42,367 nt of DNA from a virus. Lineage: Duplodnaviria > Heunggongvirae > Uroviricota > Caudoviricetes. Under the pieces are notes generated by a model. That model saw nothing but the letters and a program-made list of their open reading frames with translations, searched no databases and was not told the DNA's origin. Location: the IMG/VR virus record IMGVR_UViG_2563366848_000004; one strand, given 5' to 3'. The position numbers and the translations under genes are program-made. The stretch's first letter is position 1; every line of letters begins with the position of its first letter. Positions 2,835-16,999 of this stretch are shown piece by piece.

Positions 2835-5744
2835 TTATGCATGAGTACGCAGCGCTTCAAGGCGGCGCAGGTCGAAGTCGTTCAGTTCGTCGGTGTAGTC
2901 AGCAGTGATTGGCGCTGGCCATTCACCTGTGTCGAATCCGGTTGCGATATTGCGCATCGCTTTGCGGTACTCGAGCATACCCAGCTCCAGTAGTTCAGCG
3001 GATGCCTCGATGATGGCGATCCAGTGGTAGTTCTCGTCTTTGTTGACGAAAATCCAGAAGAACTGATCCAGCGCTGCGGTTTCGCAGTACATAGCCGCGC
3101 TCAGGTGATAATCACGTTCAATAATTTCCCGGTGTAGCCTGGCGCGCAGGCTTTCCTGCTTAACATTCCACATGCTGATGGTTTTCAGGTCAGCACCGAT
3201 ACGCACGCCGTCTAGGTCGATCTCAAGGTCAGGACGCACACGAACTTCCAGTCCCGTCTCCTCGTCAAAGCCAAAGTAGCTCACCTCAACGGCGCGGCTC
3301 GGGTGGGTTAGCAGCATGCCTGCGGTCGGGTGCGAGAGCAGTGCTGACTGAATTGCCTGCGCGGTGGCAAGTTGCTGGTGGGTAACCAGCACTTTCCCTT
3401 CCGGGTTGTTGCGCCAAGCATCGAGCAGCTCGTCGGCGAACACTGCATCTGGTTTGACTGCCTTCACGGCCTGAATCAGATCGGCCTTCGTGCCAGAGAC
3501 TTTCAGCGGTTGCAGCTTCTGAGCTTCCTGCGCGACCAGGTCAGGATTGATAATCGCAAGTTGTTCGAGTAGTGCGTCGCGGCTGCCGCTGGTTTTAATC
3601 TGCGCTGGCAGGGTGGCGTTGTACTCTTTGATGCACGCCTTCATTGCTGTTGCTGTCTTCTTCTGATCTGTATCGATACGTTGGAATTCAGCTGGCAGCG
3701 CCATATAGTTCTGCGCCGTTTCATCCAGGCTAGCGCCCAGCGGCACCAGCGCTGGCAGGGTGGCGTTGTATTCATCCAGCAAAGCTTTGATATCGTCTGC
3801 GCTCAGTTGCGCTGGCAGGCTGGCGTTGTACTCATCAATAAACGCGCGGATCGTTGCCGTGGTGGTAAATGCACCTTCCGGAATTACGGGTTCAACGCTA
3901 AATTCTTCATCGAGCTGTTCTGGCTGCAACGCCAGCGCATGTACCAGGTTTCCCATGTCCAGCACTGAGGAGCGCTCTTTGACGATGGTTTTCTCAACGT
4001 GGCGCGCATTGAAGTACATCAGCGAAACGCGCGCATCTTTTACCTGGGTGGAACTGATGCCGTTGGCAGCGTGGTAAACCTCGTTCGGCAGACCTTCATA
4101 GCGCCCAGGCTCGAAGTAATCGGGGTAAAAAACAGCTTGTTCGTCAGATTGCGCCTCTGGCTCGACGTGTGCCAAAACTGGTTCAGTCTGGTTTACAGAA
4201 TCGCTATTTTGAGCGACAGATTCCGTATTTTGGTTTACATCGGCCTGCTGGCCGGGATGTGACTCTTCACCAGTTTCCAGACTGCTTTCGCCTGACTGCA
4301 TTTCATTACCAACATTTTTTTCATCACTGACAGTTTCTTGAACCTGCACATTGCTGGTGGTTTCCGTAGCCTGTTTCGTGCCATGAGTTGCTGAGTTCTG
4401 CAGTAAAGCCGTAACATCGAATATTCCGTTGCCGACATTTTTAACCAGTTCTTGTTCGGCTTTATGTGGTTGTGCTGTCGCTTCCTCTGCGCGGCGGCGT
4501 GCTTCTTCTTCACGTACGCGTCGCAGGTTCTCTTCGTGAGTGCAGAAGGGTTTGCGTGGAGACTCCTTACTTTCAGGTTGGGGAATTTCCTGTGTTGCGG
4601 GCTCAGCTTCATGCAATGGCAATAACTCAACAGCAGCATTAAACGCAGCAGTCATGGTCCGGTTAACAAACTCCAGGTGAGCGACAGGAGTTAGATGAAT
4701 ATTTTCCGGCGCGATACGTATCAGGTTAAAAATAGCTGTGCGGTTAACGCCAAGAACGCCGGGTTGATTGCGCAGAATGCTGCTCCATGATTTCCACGGT
4801 TCTTCTTTTTTGGTCACGATTTCTTTAGCGCGACGAAGAATGCTGCCCGGGATCTCGAAGTGGTTGAAGTCCATAGGCAGAAGGGCACATGCAATCTCTA
4901 AATCGAGAGTGTCAAGGGTATGGTATGTATCAGGTCCACGGTCAGTGACGTAACCGCCGTTGGCATTGGTTCCGGAATCAGTACGCTGAACACTACTGAT
5001 GTGATTACCGGCAGCCCATTCACGCGCCAGGATGCCACGGTCAATGTAATCAGTAGCCGCCCACATTCTGGTGAAACGGAGTACCAGCGCGAGTTCGTGA
5101 CGCTTGTCCTGGCTGAACACTTTGCGAATGGCATCGGTGTAGCGCCACAGGTCTTTGGTGTCGTAACCCTTCACTTCCGGGCAGTTCTCAGCAGCTAACA
5201 GCAAGTTCTGGACGTAACTGTTATCAGTGTCCATCTCCAGCGCGCCGATAGCTTCGTACTCTTCGCGGGTTACGTGGTGGCGCAGTTCGTCGGCGGTGAA
5301 CTGGGAAAGCAGTTGCTTACGAAACGGCATCTGCACTACCGGGTAGAGGGTTGAGTCGTCGTCGTGTTCGTCCAGCGTGATGCCAGCGGTTTCTGGCAGC
5401 GTTGACTCAGTAGTTATGTGACTATCAACGGTCTGAGCTGTTTTCTCGTCAGAGTTTTCAGCTGTGACTTTTGGCAGCCAGGTGCGGTCATCGTTCTGCA
5501 GTTCGTAGCGTTCGCACCAGGTGTAATCCACTGCGCCTTCTTCCGGCAGGTCGTCATATACCGGGAAATCGGTGCGGATTGGTTTGGCATAATCTTTACC
5601 GCGGCCAGTTTCTTCAATTCCGGCTTCTTCCAGTGCCACATCGAGTTGGAGATTGGCGCGCGCTACACTTTTCGCAGTGAACCAAATCACTGCATCTTTC
5701 TTGCCAGACTTCTGACTGGCTTTTATCAGATGGAAAAATTCCAT
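2835..5744 (-). CDS. RecE-like exonuclease VIII (C-terminal PD-(D/E)xK nuclease domain)
   Basis: 969-aa ORF from internal ATG (MEFFHLIKAS) with AAGAGGA SD; C-terminal region carries RPDLEIDLDG...IGADLKT (PD...DxK nuclease motif); large acidic/low-complexity linker; positioned upstream of annealase as in Rac recE-recT. Confidence 0.65.
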   Translation of the reverse strand: MEFFHLIKASQKSGKKDAVIWFTAKSVARANLQLDVALEEAGIEETGRGKDYAKPIRTDFPVYDDLPEEGAVDYTWCERYELQNDDRTWLPKVTAENSDEKTAQTVDSHITTESTLPETAGITLDEHDDDSTLYPVVQMPFRKQLLSQFTADELRHHVTREEYEAIGALEMDTDNSYVQNLLLAAENCPEVKGYDTKDLWRYTDAIRKVFSQDKRHELALVLRFTRMWAATDYIDRGILAREWAAGNHISSVQRTDSGTNANGGYVTDRGPDTYHTLDTLDLEIACALLPMDFNHFEIPGSILRRAKEIVTKKEEPWKSWSSILRNQPGVLGVNRTAIFNLIRIAPENIHLTPVAHLEFVNRTMTAAFNAAVELLPLHEAEPATQEIPQPESKESPRKPFCTHEENLRRVREEEARRRAEEATAQPHKAEQELVKNVGNGIFDVTALLQNSATHGTKQATETTSNVQVQETVSDEKNVGNEMQSGESSLETGEESHPGQQADVNQNTESVAQNSDSVNQTEPVLAHVEPEAQSDEQAVFYPDYFEPGRYEGLPNEVYHAANGISSTQVKDARVSLMYFNARHVEKTIVKERSSVLDMGNLVHALALQPEQLDEEFSVEPVIPEGAFTTTATIRAFIDEYNASLPAQLSADDIKALLDEYNATLPALVPLGASLDETAQNYMALPAEFQRIDTDQKKTATAMKACIKEYNATLPAQIKTSGSRDALLEQLAIINPDLVAQEAQKLQPLKVSGTKADLIQAVKAVKPDAVFADELLDAWRNNPEGKVLVTHQQLATAQAIQSALLSHPTAGMLLTHPSRAVEVSYFGFDEETGLEVRVRPDLEIDLDGVRIGADLKTISMWNVKQESLRARLHREIIERDYHLSAAMYCETAALDQFFWIFVNKDENYHWIAIIEASAELLELGMLEYRKAMRNIATGFDTGEWPAPITADYTDELNDFDLRRLEALRTHA

Positions 5745-6055: not shown

Positions 6056-6262
6056 CTAGTGGCTGAGTCCATGCCCCAGACCGTTCAGATAAACTTCAAC
6101 CAGCAAATCCTTGGTGTAAGTCATTTCTACGCCGCGATGCAGATACAAACGTCCGCGAGCGTTAGCTGATGCCGTCCAGGTTGAGTCTTTGTGTTTGACG
6201 AGCATCCCCGGCTGAACTGCGCCGCGGTTTACTGTCTGTGTACCGTAGTGCTGATGAACCAT
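6056..6262 (-). CDS. small hypothetical protein (68 aa) in the kil-gene position
   Basis: Internal ATG (MVHQHYG...) preceded by TGGAG; first gene downstream of the leftward early promoter, the position of kilR in Rac; no sequence-level identification. Confidence 0.4.
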   Translation of the reverse strand: MVHQHYGTQTVNRGAVQPGMLVKHKDSTWTASANARGRLYLHRGVEMTYTKDLLVEVYLNGLGHGLSH

Positions 6263-6509
6263 GATGTTCTCCAGTTTTTCTGAGTGAACTTCGCTGGTGG
6301 TGCCGCGGCGCTGATCTTCACGGTTGAGCGTTTTAACTCTGCAATTCACCACCGCGAAGCTCACTCTGTGCTTTGCCCTTGTCGCCAGGCTGGCGGAACG
6401 TTTCAAACCTACTGCGCGTTAATCTCACCACCTCATTCCGGTCTTCGTATGCCCCGGACGGCTACTTCGTGGGCTCCATGCCTGGGTGGTTCGTGGTGCG
6501 TCTTGGTGA

Positions 6510-14424: not shown

Positions 14425-15207
14425 ATGAACCTTGAAAACACAGTGAAATACCACTTCGCTAAATCCACACTGATTAGCGATTCTCCGCGCGCTACCGCCT
14501 CCGATTCACTGACCGGTACCGACATAATGGCTGCCATGGGCATGACGCAGGAACGCGCCGCAATGGGTTACAGCGCCTTCCTCGGCAAGATGGGCATAAG
14601 CAATAACGACCGGGATCGGGCGATCGGTCTGCTGGCTGAGTACGCGATGACAAAATGCGACAAGGTTGCCGCACTGCGTAAGCTCGGTGCCGCGGTTAAA
14701 CCTCAGGTGATGCACCAGTTGGCCACCTTCGCTTTTGAGGACTATTCCCGCAGCGCTGCCAGCGTGAAGCAGTGCGATTGTTGTGACGGTCAGGGCTTCA
14801 TTGAGGCTGACGTGTTTACCAATAAATTCCGTAAGCCAGAAGGGAAAATGACCGTGTCCGGGATGGTGAAGGTCAAAGAATCCATCAAAGTGCTATGCAA
14901 AAAGTGTAATGGCTCTGGTGTGGTTAGTGCTTCTTGCAGTGATTGCCATGGGCGCGGCAAGGCAGTGAACCAGGCTCTTACTGAGAAACAGGGCGTTCCT
15001 GTTCTGGCTGACTGTAAGCGCTGCGGAGGGCGTGGGTATGAACGACTTCCGTCGACTGAAGCCTATGCTGCTGTATGCCAGATTACTGACGCCATTAGCC
15101 TGGACACCTGGAAAAAGTCTGTTAAGCCATTCTACGACCTGCTGATCACGAAATTTGATATCGAAGAGTCCTGGGCCGAAAAACAGCTTAAGCAGATAAC
15201 GCGGTAA
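14425..15207 (+). CDS. late-gene antitermination protein Q-like
   Basis: 260-aa ORF with GGAGAAG SD; Cys-rich zinc-binding region (CDCCDGQG ... CKKCNGSG ... CSDCHGRG ... CKRCGGRG); immediately upstream of the lysis cassette. Confidence 0.75.
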   Translation: MNLENTVKYHFAKSTLISDSPRATASDSLTGTDIMAAMGMTQERAAMGYSAFLGKMGISNNDRDRAIGLLAEYAMTKCDKVAALRKLGAAVKPQVMHQLATFAFEDYSRSAASVKQCDCCDGQGFIEADVFTNKFRKPEGKMTVSGMVKVKESIKVLCKKCNGSGVVSASCSDCHGRGKAVNQALTEKQGVPVLADCKRCGGRGYERLPSTEAYAAVCQITDAISLDTWKKSVKPFYDLLITKFDIEESWAEKQLKQITR

Positions 15208-15306
15208 CGCCTATAGCGATAGCCTATGATTTTGTCTTGGGCTATTTACTTTTCCCGAATCTGTGTTAATTTTGTCCCAACGATGGGTTAATGCCTTCGT
15301 TTCAAG

Positions 15307-15340
15307 CCCTGCGGATAACACCGTGGGGTTTTTGCGTTTC
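15307..15340 (+). terminator. possible tR'-like terminator downstream of Q
   Basis: CCCTGCGG-ataaca-CCGTGGGG (stem with G-U pairs) followed by TTTTTGCGTTT; weak. Confidence 0.3.
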
Positions 15341-15410
15341 TGGAGACAGCAATACCAAGGTTCGAGACATTCAGGTAAAATTGATGCATTACAGGATGTG
15401 AGGTTGGGGA

Positions 15411-15980
15411 ATGAATAATCTACCCGATGATTACTTTTTGGATGCGGACGACGAACTCGTTGCTTTTCTGGAGAAGCAGGGCGAGGATTGTATACGCGAA
15501 ATTCACCAGTCCAACGCACTAAACAAAGAAAATGGCCAGAAGTTATTGAGTATACTCATTGCTGGCGTGGGCTCGTCATTTTTGTTATTAACGCAACGTA
15601 CAGGTTTTGATTACCTCACCGCTGGAATGTCTGTTTTTTTAGTCTACTGGGCAATGTGTGCGGCTTATCTTGTTCGCTGCGTCCTCGTTGTAAGGTCACG
15701 AGCTCTCGTGTCATCGACACCCTATGCGCTTTACCATGATGGCTATAAAGGGTTTACTGAAGATGATTACACTGGTTTTGAGTCGAAAGGATTTTCAGGA
15801 AAGCGTTCAACATTGAACGTCTTGCGGCGCTACCGGCTTGCGGATTTAACCAGAATGGCTGAAATGAGTAAAAAAGAGAATGCCAGAATAGGCCGAGAAC
15901 TAGAAAGGGTAAGGATCGCTACAATCCTCACCCCTGTTTGTGCACTTGTAATCTCAGTACTTACTTACCTTTTTTTCTGA
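15411..15980 (+). CDS. hypothetical membrane protein (189 aa) at the Q-lysis junction
   Basis: ORF with SD-like GAGGTTGGGGA; acidic N-terminus, two central and one C-terminal hydrophobic segments; occupies the classic moron site between Q and the holin. Confidence 0.55.
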   Translation: MNNLPDDYFLDADDELVAFLEKQGEDCIREIHQSNALNKENGQKLLSILIAGVGSSFLLLTQRTGFDYLTAGMSVFLVYWAMCAAYLVRCVLVVRSRALVSSTPYALYHDGYKGFTEDDYTGFESKGFSGKRSTLNVLRRYRLADLTRMAEMSKKENARIGRELERVRIATILTPVCALVISVLTYLFF

Positions 15981-16110
15981 TGTTTTCAGCAGAATCGGCA
16001 ACAAAGGTATAACCTGTCCTCAGATTTCTTTCGGCTGGCTGTGGAGCCGGTTTAGGCTGTGGTGCGGGTTGAGGCTTATTTTCTCCAGATGGTTTGTTTG
16101 ATTCACTCAT
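15961..16110 (-). CDS. possible proline-rich small protein (49 aa)
   Basis: Hand-translated MSESNKPSGENKPQPAPQPKPAPQPAERNLRTGYTFVADSAENIRKKGK with GGAGAA SD; convergent with and overlapping the end of the 189-aa gene; could be spurious. Confidence 0.25.
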   Translation of the reverse strand: MSESNKPSGENKPQPAPQPKPAPQPAERNLRTGYTFVADSAENIRKKGK

Positions 16111-16202
16111 ATAATTCTCCATGTTTGATAGGGTTATTTTTGGCGATTTAACGATATCAAATACAGTGATTTGCTGCTAGAGCATGCACTTATCTATAAC
16201 TC

Positions 16203-16230
16203 GCCCCGGCACCCGCTGGGGCTTTTTTAT
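16203..16230 (+). terminator. rho-independent terminator
   Basis: GCCCCGGC-accc-GCTGGGGC followed by TTTTTTATTT. Confidence 0.5.
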
Positions 16231-16344
16231 TTCCGGCTCACGGTAATCATCCGCTACGTGCTTTGTTGATAAATCCAACCCGTGAAGCCTGAGCCTATTT
16301 CCCCTCATACCTGAGAGGACTCACAGCAATTAAGAGGGGGCTAA

Positions 16345-16731
16345 ATGTCCGATCCAATTTCCGGTACTGGGCTGGCTGGTGGTGCCCTGACGGGTGCCAG
16401 TGTTTATGGACTGCTGACCGGAACTGATTACGGCGTTGTATTTGGCGCATTTGCAGGGGCTGTATTCTACATAGCAACAGCAGCGGATCTGAGCGCATCG
16501 CGCCGACTGGCATATTTTATCGTGTCGTATATTGCCGGGATCCTTTGCTCTGGGTTGGTTGGCTCCAAGCTGGCAAGCTTGACCGGATACAGTGATAAAC
16601 CTCTGGATGCCATTGGTGCCGTAATCGTATCTGCTTTAGCCGTTAAGATCCTGACGTTCCTGAATAATCAGGATATCGGGTCGCTGGTGGCGCTCATAAC
16701 GCGCCGGGGAGGTTCAGGTGGAGCTAAATGA
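16345..16731 (+). CDS. putative holin
   Basis: 128-aa Gly/Ala-rich membrane protein with several hydrophobic segments, first gene of the lysis cassette upstream of the endolysin. Confidence 0.6.
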   Translation: MSDPISGTGLAGGALTGASVYGLLTGTDYGVVFGAFAGAVFYIATAADLSASRRLAYFIVSYIAGILCSGLVGSKLASLTGYSDKPLDAIGAVIVSALAVKILTFLNNQDIGSLVALITRRGGSGGAK

Positions 16732-16999
16732 CCCGACAGCAACTATAAACGCGCTGTTATGTGCTTGTGTTGTTATTACTCTGATGTTTTATCGTCGTGG
16801 TGATTCGCGGCATCGTCCTTGGGTTTCACGTTTAGCCTGGCTGATTACTGTTACATACAGTGCTGTTCCGTTGGCCTATCTCTGTGGGATTTATCCCCAT
16901 TCCTCATGGCCCATTATCGTGGCGAATACTATTTTTCTTTCCGTGCTGGTGGCCGTCAGAGGCAACGTTGCACGCCTGGTTGATCATCTGAGGCACTAA
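16718..16999 (+). CDS. putative holin/antiholin-like membrane protein
   Basis: 93-aa ORF with three hydrophobic segments; GTG start with GGGAGG SD, overlapping the upstream gene; stop overlaps endolysin start. Confidence 0.5.
   Translation: MELNDPTATINALLCACVVITLMFYRRGDSRHRPWVSRLAWLITVTYSAVPLAYLCGIYPHSSWPIIVANTIFLSVLVAVRGNVARLVDHLRH

Follow-up and report, generated by a model that had tools for sequence, protein, structure and literature searches.

The gap between the gene of the late antiterminator Q and the holin gene is where Shiga toxin (Stx) and other high-impact cargo of lambdoid prophages ride late transcription. Such cargo genes, called morons, are extra DNA that separates genes lying side by side in related phages, and they have a deviant base composition, their own promoter and their own downstream terminator. 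Convergent genes whose 3' ends overlap are found in type I toxin-antitoxin loci such as txpA/RatA and bsrG/SR4, which belong to Bacillus prophage-like elements. The small membrane effectors of Pycsar (an antiphage resistance system built on a pyrimidine cyclase) and of the cyclic oligonucleotide-based antiphage signaling system (CBASS) kill or arrest infected cells by breaching the membrane, and the effector PycTM has been reported to disrupt the integrity of the membrane during abortive infection (PMC11224242). Here, we describe two convergent genes, M189 and P49, located between Q and the first holin gene of a lambdoid Escherichia coli prophage. The window, meaning the whole stretch of DNA that was analysed, is the IMG/VR record IMGVR_UViG_2563366848_000004 of 42,367 nt. 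Whereas this site and its use by morons are familiar, the cargo pair found here is not. M189 and P49 are a conserved pair of unassigned function, belonging to PHROG 11870 and 14506 and named 'hypothetical' in RefSeq and GenBank, and a literature search found no paper on M189, its accession or the module that the two genes form. The features of the cassette carrying them are as follows:

About 15346-16212: exchangeable moron cassette of 867 bp with 43.9% guanine plus cytosine (GC); bounded by the points at which similarity to HK225, mEp237, KL53 and W619 is lost
15376..15381, plus strand: TAAAAT, likely -10 element of M189's own promoter, 30 nt before the ATG
15411..15980, plus strand: M189, predicted inner-membrane protein of 189 amino acids (aa); RefSeq WP_001567568.1 in strain LR-33; phrog_11870
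15961..16110, minus strand: P49, basic partner of 49 aa; RefSeq WP_162842358.1 in LR-33; phrog_14506 (E 5.4e-26)
16115..16120, minus strand: GGAGAA, Shine-Dalgarno sequence of P49, 4 nt before ATG 16110, read from the sequence
16133..16159, minus strand: 27-nt core upstream of P49, TGATATCGTTAAATCGCCAAAAATAAC on the minus strand, from alignments
16203..16230, plus strand: rho-independent terminator closing the cassette; stem at 16203-16222 (8 pairs, 7 of them G-C), then TTTTTTATTT

Inheritance of M189 and P49 as a unit

The 3' ends of M189 and P49 overlap by 20 nt in the window (15961-15980). A total of 88 loci were sampled, 8 from reference genomes and 80 from IMG/VR, and the overlap was 20 nt in most of them, with a range of 15-36 nt. 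In about 75 of the 88 loci, tblastn detected a P49 homologue at an unchanged offset on the strand opposite M189, and inspection of the open reading frames (ORFs) revealed P49 also in every locus that tblastn had missed, such as MTEPKKAPAESKSQPVEQQKPTPAKQGGFSVGRMIAADSAEGLKKKSK in Serratia. The small gene was present and converged on M189 in all 64 distinct loci with an alignable downstream region. M189 and P49 are inherited as a unit throughout Enterobacterales prophages. Two tightly linked and co-inherited genes, as expected of a toxin-antitoxin locus, were found in 64 of 64 cases, with one exception elsewhere, a Salmonella variant in locus L107. The first-pass annotation of this DNA had noticed the small ORF; the comparison adds that it is an almost obligatory partner gene and that the module is found family-wide in Enterobacterales prophages.

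The Salmonella locus L107 (Salmonella enterica GCA_005941295) carries an ORF of 348 aa at 4090-5136 on the plus strand, which is missing from the gene table of the contig. This ORF had no relative in the PDB and gave only partial matches, to hypothetical proteins of two Klebsiella phages. Very distant relatives of M189 in non-enterobacterial metagenomes also had a convergent proline-rich small ORF just downstream. A called gene of 45 aa converges on one such relative (L099, 3701-3838, minus strand). An ORF of 86 aa with a C-terminal hydrophobic tail was seen in a high-GC Lautropia metagenome-assembled genome (L094, 5583-5843, minus strand) and may be due to chance.

The M189 and P49 proteins

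M189 matched phrog_11870 over its full length (E 5.6e-84). The family comprises at least 115 clusters at 90% identity, nearly all of exactly 189 aa, from Escherichia, Salmonella, Klebsiella, Yersinia, Serratia, Proteus, Pantoea and other genera. All clusters with a named source belonged to Enterobacterales, one of them being additionally labelled Acinetobacter, and no family member carried a Pfam annotation, save for one chimeric partial match. Hydrophobic segments were located at about residues 45-62, 70-92 and 168-189. The first is moderately hydrophobic and lies below the Kyte-Doolittle threshold, but it extends a long predicted helix. Residues 1-44 are acidic, with 11 D/E versus 4 K/R, and the N-terminal motif DDYFLD.DDE.L..LE.QGE is nearly invariant in the family. 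The AlphaFold2 model, built from an alignment of 46 sequences, had a predicted local distance difference test (pLDDT) score of 84.5 and showed three long helices at 14-62, 68-92 and 134-188. The predicted topology is an acidic cytoplasmic N-terminal helix, a transmembrane (TM) hairpin at 45-62/70-92, a basic cytoplasmic part at 93-167 and a C-terminal TM helix at 168-189; residues 93-167 were placed in the cytoplasm because 15 K/R lie there. Searches of PDB sequences with the profiles A2 and A4 returned nothing, and the profile search with A2 gave no further Pfam-annotated relatives.

P49 has 8 prolines among its 49 residues and is rich in Pro, Gln and Lys. The mechanical ORF list gives it as 53 aa from ATG 16122, whereas the conserved and RefSeq start is ATG 16110, giving 49 aa. 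In an alignment of 30 loci, GGAG(A/G) was kept at the Shine-Dalgarno position. The consensus N terminus M-S-(E/Q)-x-N-K-P is followed by a low-complexity Pro/Gln/Lys spacer of ~25 residues and by the conserved C-terminal motif F-[ST]-x-x-R-x-[FIV]-V-G-D-S-A-[DE]-x-x-R/K-K-K-x-K. The AlphaFold2 model of P49 (pLDDT 64) was mostly disordered, a short helix at 41-47 being its one ordered element, and no meaningful match to Pfam, NCBIfam or PADLOC was obtained at E values up to 10. In all 64 distinct downstream regions, which encode 47 different proteins, an ATG stood at the aligned column and was followed by an open frame of 47-64 codons. Length differences among the 64 loci were all in frame, and single-nucleotide codon differences numbered 4108, 2695 and 11,090 at positions 1, 2 and 3, respectively. 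Because of the kept ATG and open frame, the in-frame indels and the excess at third positions, the alignments mark P49 as a translated gene under purifying selection at the protein level.

Much of what the first-pass annotation had said of the two genes was borne out. The 189-aa ORF at 15411-15980 is the first after the Q-like antiterminator, it is the RefSeq protein WP_001567568.1 of phrog_11870 behind a Q of family PF03589, and it has the acidic N terminus and the three hydrophobic segments that had been described. The 49-aa Pro-rich minus-strand ORF with its GGAGAA was found as described, with a conserved start. The statement that no family was recognised stands for Pfam, NCBIfam and PADLOC; it does not stand for PHROG, in which both genes have families, and M189 has a distant sub-threshold link to PycTM/2TM proteins.

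An exchangeable moron cassette between Q and the holin gene

Pairwise alignment with relatives showed that similarity ends at 15345 and returns at about 16213. The flanks (15208/15241-15345 and 16213-16301) were conserved in HK225, mEp237, KL53 and W619, and the cargo between them differed. E. coli W619 carried a diverged copy of the M189/P49 pair between the same flanks, and in E. coli KL53 the space was taken by unrelated filler of 254 bp that has a terminator of its own. The gap between pR'-tR', the late promoter and its terminator, and the holin gene held a 136-aa minus-strand gene in HK225 (L001, 1637-2047) and a 213-aa plus-strand gene in mEp237 (L002, 1976-2617). Since related phages carry other cargo or filler in the Q-holin gap, it is a classical moron site, and the cassette has a textbook moron anatomy. 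The extra DNA lies between genes that are adjacent in relatives, and its base composition deviates, with 43.9% GC in the cassette compared with 52.7% in Q, 53.2% in the holin gene and 51.6% in the whole window. The cassette has its own downstream terminator (16203-16230). As for its own promoter, TAAAAT is conserved 30 nt before the ATG; the -35 region in the window is poor. Among 5426 complete E. coli genomes, the cassette was present in 6 and the flanks in 238. The alternative cargo of HK225 and mEp237 marks the gap between pR'-tR' and the holin gene as a cargo hotspot.

The earlier proposal of a non-lysis membrane-protein moron at the Q-holin junction is thus supported by an exchangeable cassette, low GC, an own terminator and the lack of a holin match. 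The terminator that had been placed at 16203..16230 ahead of the holin gene was also recovered, with its 8-pair stem and the holin gene starting at 16345.

Genomic context across the family

The module was located between Q and a holin gene in 9 of the 9 loci in which both neighbours were identified. Three unrelated Q families stood beside it, namely PF03589 in the window, PF06323 in Klebsiella (L109-111) and PF06530 in Providencia (L112-114), and the neighbouring holins were of the types holin_8, holin_3_1 and holin_2_1. A holin-like small ORF with multiple TM segments was found within 2 kb downstream in at least 57 of the 88 loci, at a median of 364 nt. The module was also located ahead of the holin gene in induced coliphages such as vB_EcoS-673R7 and in an Actinobacillus phage record; Q was annotated upstream of the module in vB_EcoS-673R7 and not in the Actinobacillus phage record. 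Only five deposited phage genomes contained a homologue of M189, and all of these were labelled hypothetical or putative membrane protein.

A Providencia prophage with the module (L112) has a 74-aa gene just past the lysis cassette (6137-6361, plus strand) with a weak match to the Pfam family Acb2_Tad1_hairpin. This is a family of anti-CBASS and anti-Thoeris nucleotide sponges.

Control elements of the cassette

Most of 59 distinct upstream regions shared the sequence cAGGTAAAAT at the same distance from M189, following a T tract that belongs to a terminator. In L065, TAAAAT lies within GTGACA-16-TAAAAT, which matches 10 of 12 promoter positions. Because the -35 is poor in the window and the scan calls no promoter, any autonomous expression of M189 from its own promoter is likely weak there.

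The 27-nt core upstream of P49 has the minus-strand consensus TGATATCGTTAAATCGCCAAAA(A/G)TAAC. It was better conserved than either ORF, even where the M189 proteins were only about 50% identical. The core is presumed to be a promoter or operator, and its distance from P49 is right for one. It had no match to the sigma-70 consensus in the window scan, and RNAalifold found no consensus RNA structure. An RNA hairpin was considered and dropped, as the inverted repeat of the window's single-sequence fold was not kept across loci. Sites for sigma-E, sigma-54, LexA, Fur, IHF and DnaA were compared by eye, and each was a poor match. An Rfam search of 15150-16400 returned nothing.

A terminator with a different stem sequence was found at the place of 16203..16230 in nearly all related loci, and no terminator was found between M189 and P49. 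The terminator at 16203..16230 would be passed by Q-modified polymerase. Between the 27-nt core and the terminator, many loci had a second, putative hairpin (about 16165-16197 in the window and the same place in L005-L082). Its stem varied by locus, being GCCAGA...TCTGGC or GCCGC...GCGGC, and it was weak in the window.

Distant relatives of M189

An exhaustive HMMER search with the M189 family profile gave 102 representatives at E <= 0.001, with lengths of 160-200 aa and the same architecture. One of the distant relatives, P0155, was matched by the family profile A1 at E 7.4e-22, and BLASTP of M189 against P0155 gave 9e-20 and 30% identity, with the N-terminal motif DDYFLD.DDE.L..LE in common. 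P0155 in turn matched the PADLOC model of PycTM (PDLC02364) at E 1.5e-8, over residues 17-182 and over positions 7-152 of 160 in the profile, and the CBASS model 'Effector 2TM' (PDLC00700) at E 4e-5 over residues 37-180. The match of P0152 to the PADLOC PycTM model was weaker (E 0.007-0.011), and P0141 matched the 2TM model PDLC00668 at E 0.004 and, faintly, SLATT_3 (0.13). M189 itself had no match to the PADLOC PycTM model and is tied to it only through P0155. Judged from these sequence comparisons, homology of M189 to the PycTM/2TM class of effectors is plausible, the chances being about even.

P0155 is encoded in a metagenomic prophage (L103) beside cI, Cro and CII, that is, in the immunity region and not near lysis genes. 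The layout is the same kind of module, with a convergent gene for a 53-aa protein in which Ser, Pro and Lys are abundant, a 3' overlap of 30 nt and a promoter matching 10 of 12 positions before the small gene. In the same locus (4538-5005, minus strand), the direct repeat TTACCACAACTTATAA occurs twice around a perfect TATAAT before the small gene. The same strand carries, immediately upstream of this gene, a 55-aa gene that matches RHH_1 weakly, and the arrangement looks like an operator-controlled promoter. In another locus (L097), a Guanylate_cyc-TPR gene was located about 1.25 kb upstream, with two genes between.

Prophage setting and late promoter

The window is a lambdoid E. coli prophage. 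The segment 15200-16350 was identical (100%) to the chromosome of strain LR-33, and 5 more complete genomes matched it at 99.7-99.9%. The gene order around the module is ybcO-like nuclease, rusA, a 46-aa YlcG-like ORF, Q, M189, P49 (minus strand), holin, holin, endolysin of family GH19 and Rz. The neighbouring features are as follows:

14425..15207, plus strand: Q antiterminator of the P22 gp23 type; Pfam PF03589 (E 2.2e-45), phrog_127 (E 5.7e-104)
15245..15284, plus strand: lambda-like late promoter pR' with a qut-like region; hexamers read from the sequence, assignment by homology
15304..15341, plus strand: tR', putative terminator of the short late-promoter transcript; 11-pair stem, then a T tract
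16345..16731, plus strand: first holin gene and first true lysis gene, 128 aa; Pfam Phage_holin_8 (E 1.4e-34)
16718-16999: second holin gene, 93 aa; Phage_holin_3_7

Q carries four CxxCxGxG zinc motifs. The putative pR' consists of a -35 TTTACT (15245-50), an extended -10 TGtTAATTT (15264-72) and an AACGAT pause-type element (15279-84). This region aligned with HK620, HK633 and HK022, and the HK633 record has 'promoter similar to lambda PR'' and 'Qut site' annotated at or directly before the aligned stretch. The pR'/qut-like region resembles that of lambda, yet the adjoining Q belongs to the P22 gp23 family (PF03589) and not to the lambda Q family. The tR' element was annotated in HK225 as a rho-independent terminator and was kept in all left-flank relatives. 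The first-pass list of features did not include tR', which stands between the late promoter and M189. Because M189 is downstream of pR'-tR', polymerase from pR' would reach it only if modified by Q. The two consecutive holin genes belong to different families and overlap by 14 nt, and the GH19 (chitinase-like) endolysin gene is next.

Proposed function and alternatives

The module can be read as a cyclase-less membrane effector with a small regulator, serving phage defence or exclusion; we favour this reading tentatively and rate it a little short of probable. M189 would be a relative of the Pycsar and CBASS small membrane effectors that works without a cyclase. In a lysogen, the weak promoter of M189 would allow low expression of the protein, which would be held inactive by P49, by antisense and collision effects arising from P49's convergent transcription, or by both. 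An incoming phage or a lost supply of P49 would free M189, and the inner membrane would then be depolarised or permeabilised. The collapse of the membrane would abort the infection or fire the holin of the invader too early, and the host population would be protected. When the prophage itself is induced, Q-modified polymerase from pR' would pass both terminators, cross M189 and meet the P49 promoter head-on, and because of this encounter the balance of M189 and P49 should shift at the onset of late transcription.

Several results weigh against a defence effector of this kind. Profile and structure searches, which the first-pass annotation had proposed, gave no match of M189 to Pfam, NCBIfam or PADLOC even at E 10, and the fold searches gave only generic long-helix bundles (BAR domains, G protein-coupled receptor helices), none at E <= 0.001. 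P0155 reached only 16.1 bits against Pfam PF18967 (PycTM), for which the cut-off is 27.2, and with a single TM region; the precomputed table nonetheless lists PF18967 for P0155. Similarity between membrane proteins can arise from composition. In the window and in loci L094-L114, neither M189 nor its relatives are adjoined by a cyclase or another signal generator. M189 does not qualify as a Pycsar effector, being below the gathering score of Pfam PF18967 and having no adjacent PycC. The sigma-70 consensus scan of the window called no promoter on either strand. The Salmonella variant P0090 (a cluster of 88 sequences, locus L107) has no P49, and its co-directional 348-aa ORF begins 10 nt past the M189 stop; because of this variant, P49 is not an indispensable antidote. 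Finally, the module stands constantly directly before the holin gene, as would equally be expected if it served the lysis of the phage itself.

Because the prophage's own induction must also shift the M189/P49 balance, a role in lysis timing was retained as an alternative, although we consider it unlikely. As the first Q-dependent late gene, M189 would prime the holin or set it off, for instance through a lowered membrane potential, or would modulate it, and P49 would restrain M189 until late transcription silences the P49 promoter. The order Q-module-holin in 9 of 9 loci, across three Q families and several holin families, is what a lysis accessory would show, and so is the holin-like ORF within 2 kb in at least 57 of the 88 loci. 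M189 is also co-directional with the late operon, with P49 opposed to it. Close relatives lyse without the cassette, however, as it occurs in 6 of 5426 genomes versus 238 with the flanks, and its own terminator and -10 element would be superfluous for a plain late gene. The remote P0155 module lies in the immunity region, and the Q-holin gap is a general cargo site. M189 had no match to a holin or antiholin family in Pfam or PHROG and none to a lysis PHROG, and homology to these proteins was one of the findings that the first-pass annotation had said would refute a moron. Two bona fide holin genes follow at 16345 and 16718, and the mass of M189 is predicted to be mostly cytoplasmic, so that M189 is not classed as a holin or antiholin. 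Should M189 instead set the timing of lysis, the holin pathway would gain a new accessory.

A more specific form of the defence reading, which we regard as doubtful, is that M189/P49 is a minimal abortive-infection switch. A synthase-free PycTM-like pore-former would be checked by a convergent, disordered, proline-rich peptide and would be released when outside transcription overruns the promoter of the antidote. The overrunning transcription could come from the prophage's own Q-modified polymerase or be set off by an invader, and the onset of late transcription and the triggering of the holin would then be directly coupled to membrane collapse.

Less likely than a role in lysis timing is non-lethal superinfection exclusion, in which M189 would block incoming phage DNA at the inner membrane, as do HK97 gp15, P22 SieA and T4 Imm, and P49 would only be a regulator. 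A prophage moron for a small inner-membrane protein with mostly cytoplasmic mass suits this role, and HK97 gp15, as cited in PMC11364771, is a precedent for a membrane-protein moron with such a function. M189 had no similarity to known exclusion families (SieB and others) in Pfam, NCBIfam, PADLOC and the functional PHROGs, and its distant sequence links lead only to killing effectors. A tightly coupled convergent partner is also not typical of known exclusion genes.

It is improbable that the pair is an addiction module of the toxin-antitoxin kind which stabilises the prophage or the cassette, with an antisense RNA from the P49 promoter as a type I-like antidote. The convergent genes, the conserved 3' overlap of 15-36 nt with no terminator between them, and a 27-nt core conserved more than the N-terminal coding sequence of P49 agree with an antisense mechanism. 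On the other hand, P49 is clearly under protein-level selection, as seen from the third-position excess, the in-frame indels and a C-terminal motif that is conserved although it lies beyond the overlap. The toxins of type I systems are peptides of <60 aa versus the 189 residues of M189, and the P0090 variant has no antisense partner. It is very improbable that the cassette is a lysogenic-conversion gene for host physiology (stress tolerance, envelope, colonisation) with no role in conflict between phages, for although it occupies the same site as Stx and other lambdoid conversion genes (PMC6266700 and PMC7547250) and M189 has no assignable biochemical function, M189 showed no resemblance to any virulence or transport family in Pfam and NCBIfam, and a phage-centred function fits better because the family occurs in prophages of ecologically diverse Enterobacterales, including plant and insect associates.

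If M189 is a cyclase-free PycTM/2TM effector, a small protein or transcriptional collision would control it in place of a second messenger, and a compact two-gene system would join the defence repertoire of prophages.

Comparison with known systems

The type I toxin-antitoxin loci txpA/RatA and bsrG/SR4 resemble the module in a membrane-targeted product, a convergent partner over the 3' end and a location in prophages. They differ in that the 'toxin' here has 189 aa and the antisense partner encodes a conserved protein. With the CBASS 2TM and SLATT-type effectors, M189 would share the presumed role of a membrane-breaking end-effector, and P0155 matched PDLC00700 from end to end. However, no CD-NTase (cGAS/DncV-like nucleotidyltransferase) or other nucleotide synthase is located nearby, M189 has three hydrophobic segments and not two, and the matches are weak and reach M189 only indirectly. 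PycTM (PF18967; PDLC02363/02364) and M189 are both small (about 160-190 aa) and all-helical, with a TM hairpin and a C-terminal hydrophobic helix. Both are carried on mobile elements, and the M189 relative P0155 aligns end to end with the PADLOC profile. In contrast, the acidic motif DDYFLD.DDE.L..LE of M189 is outside the matched profile region, no PycC is found next to M189, and Pycsar has no convergent 49-aa partner. Compared with the lambdoid morons (HK97 gp15 and the late cargo Stx, porin and Bor), the cassette differs in having two convergent, overlapping and co-travelling genes and the 27-nt core, and in showing no sequence kinship to characterised moron products. It shares with them the insertion between neighbouring genes, the deviant GC, the terminator of its own, the likely promoter, the membrane product and the site proximal to the late promoter.

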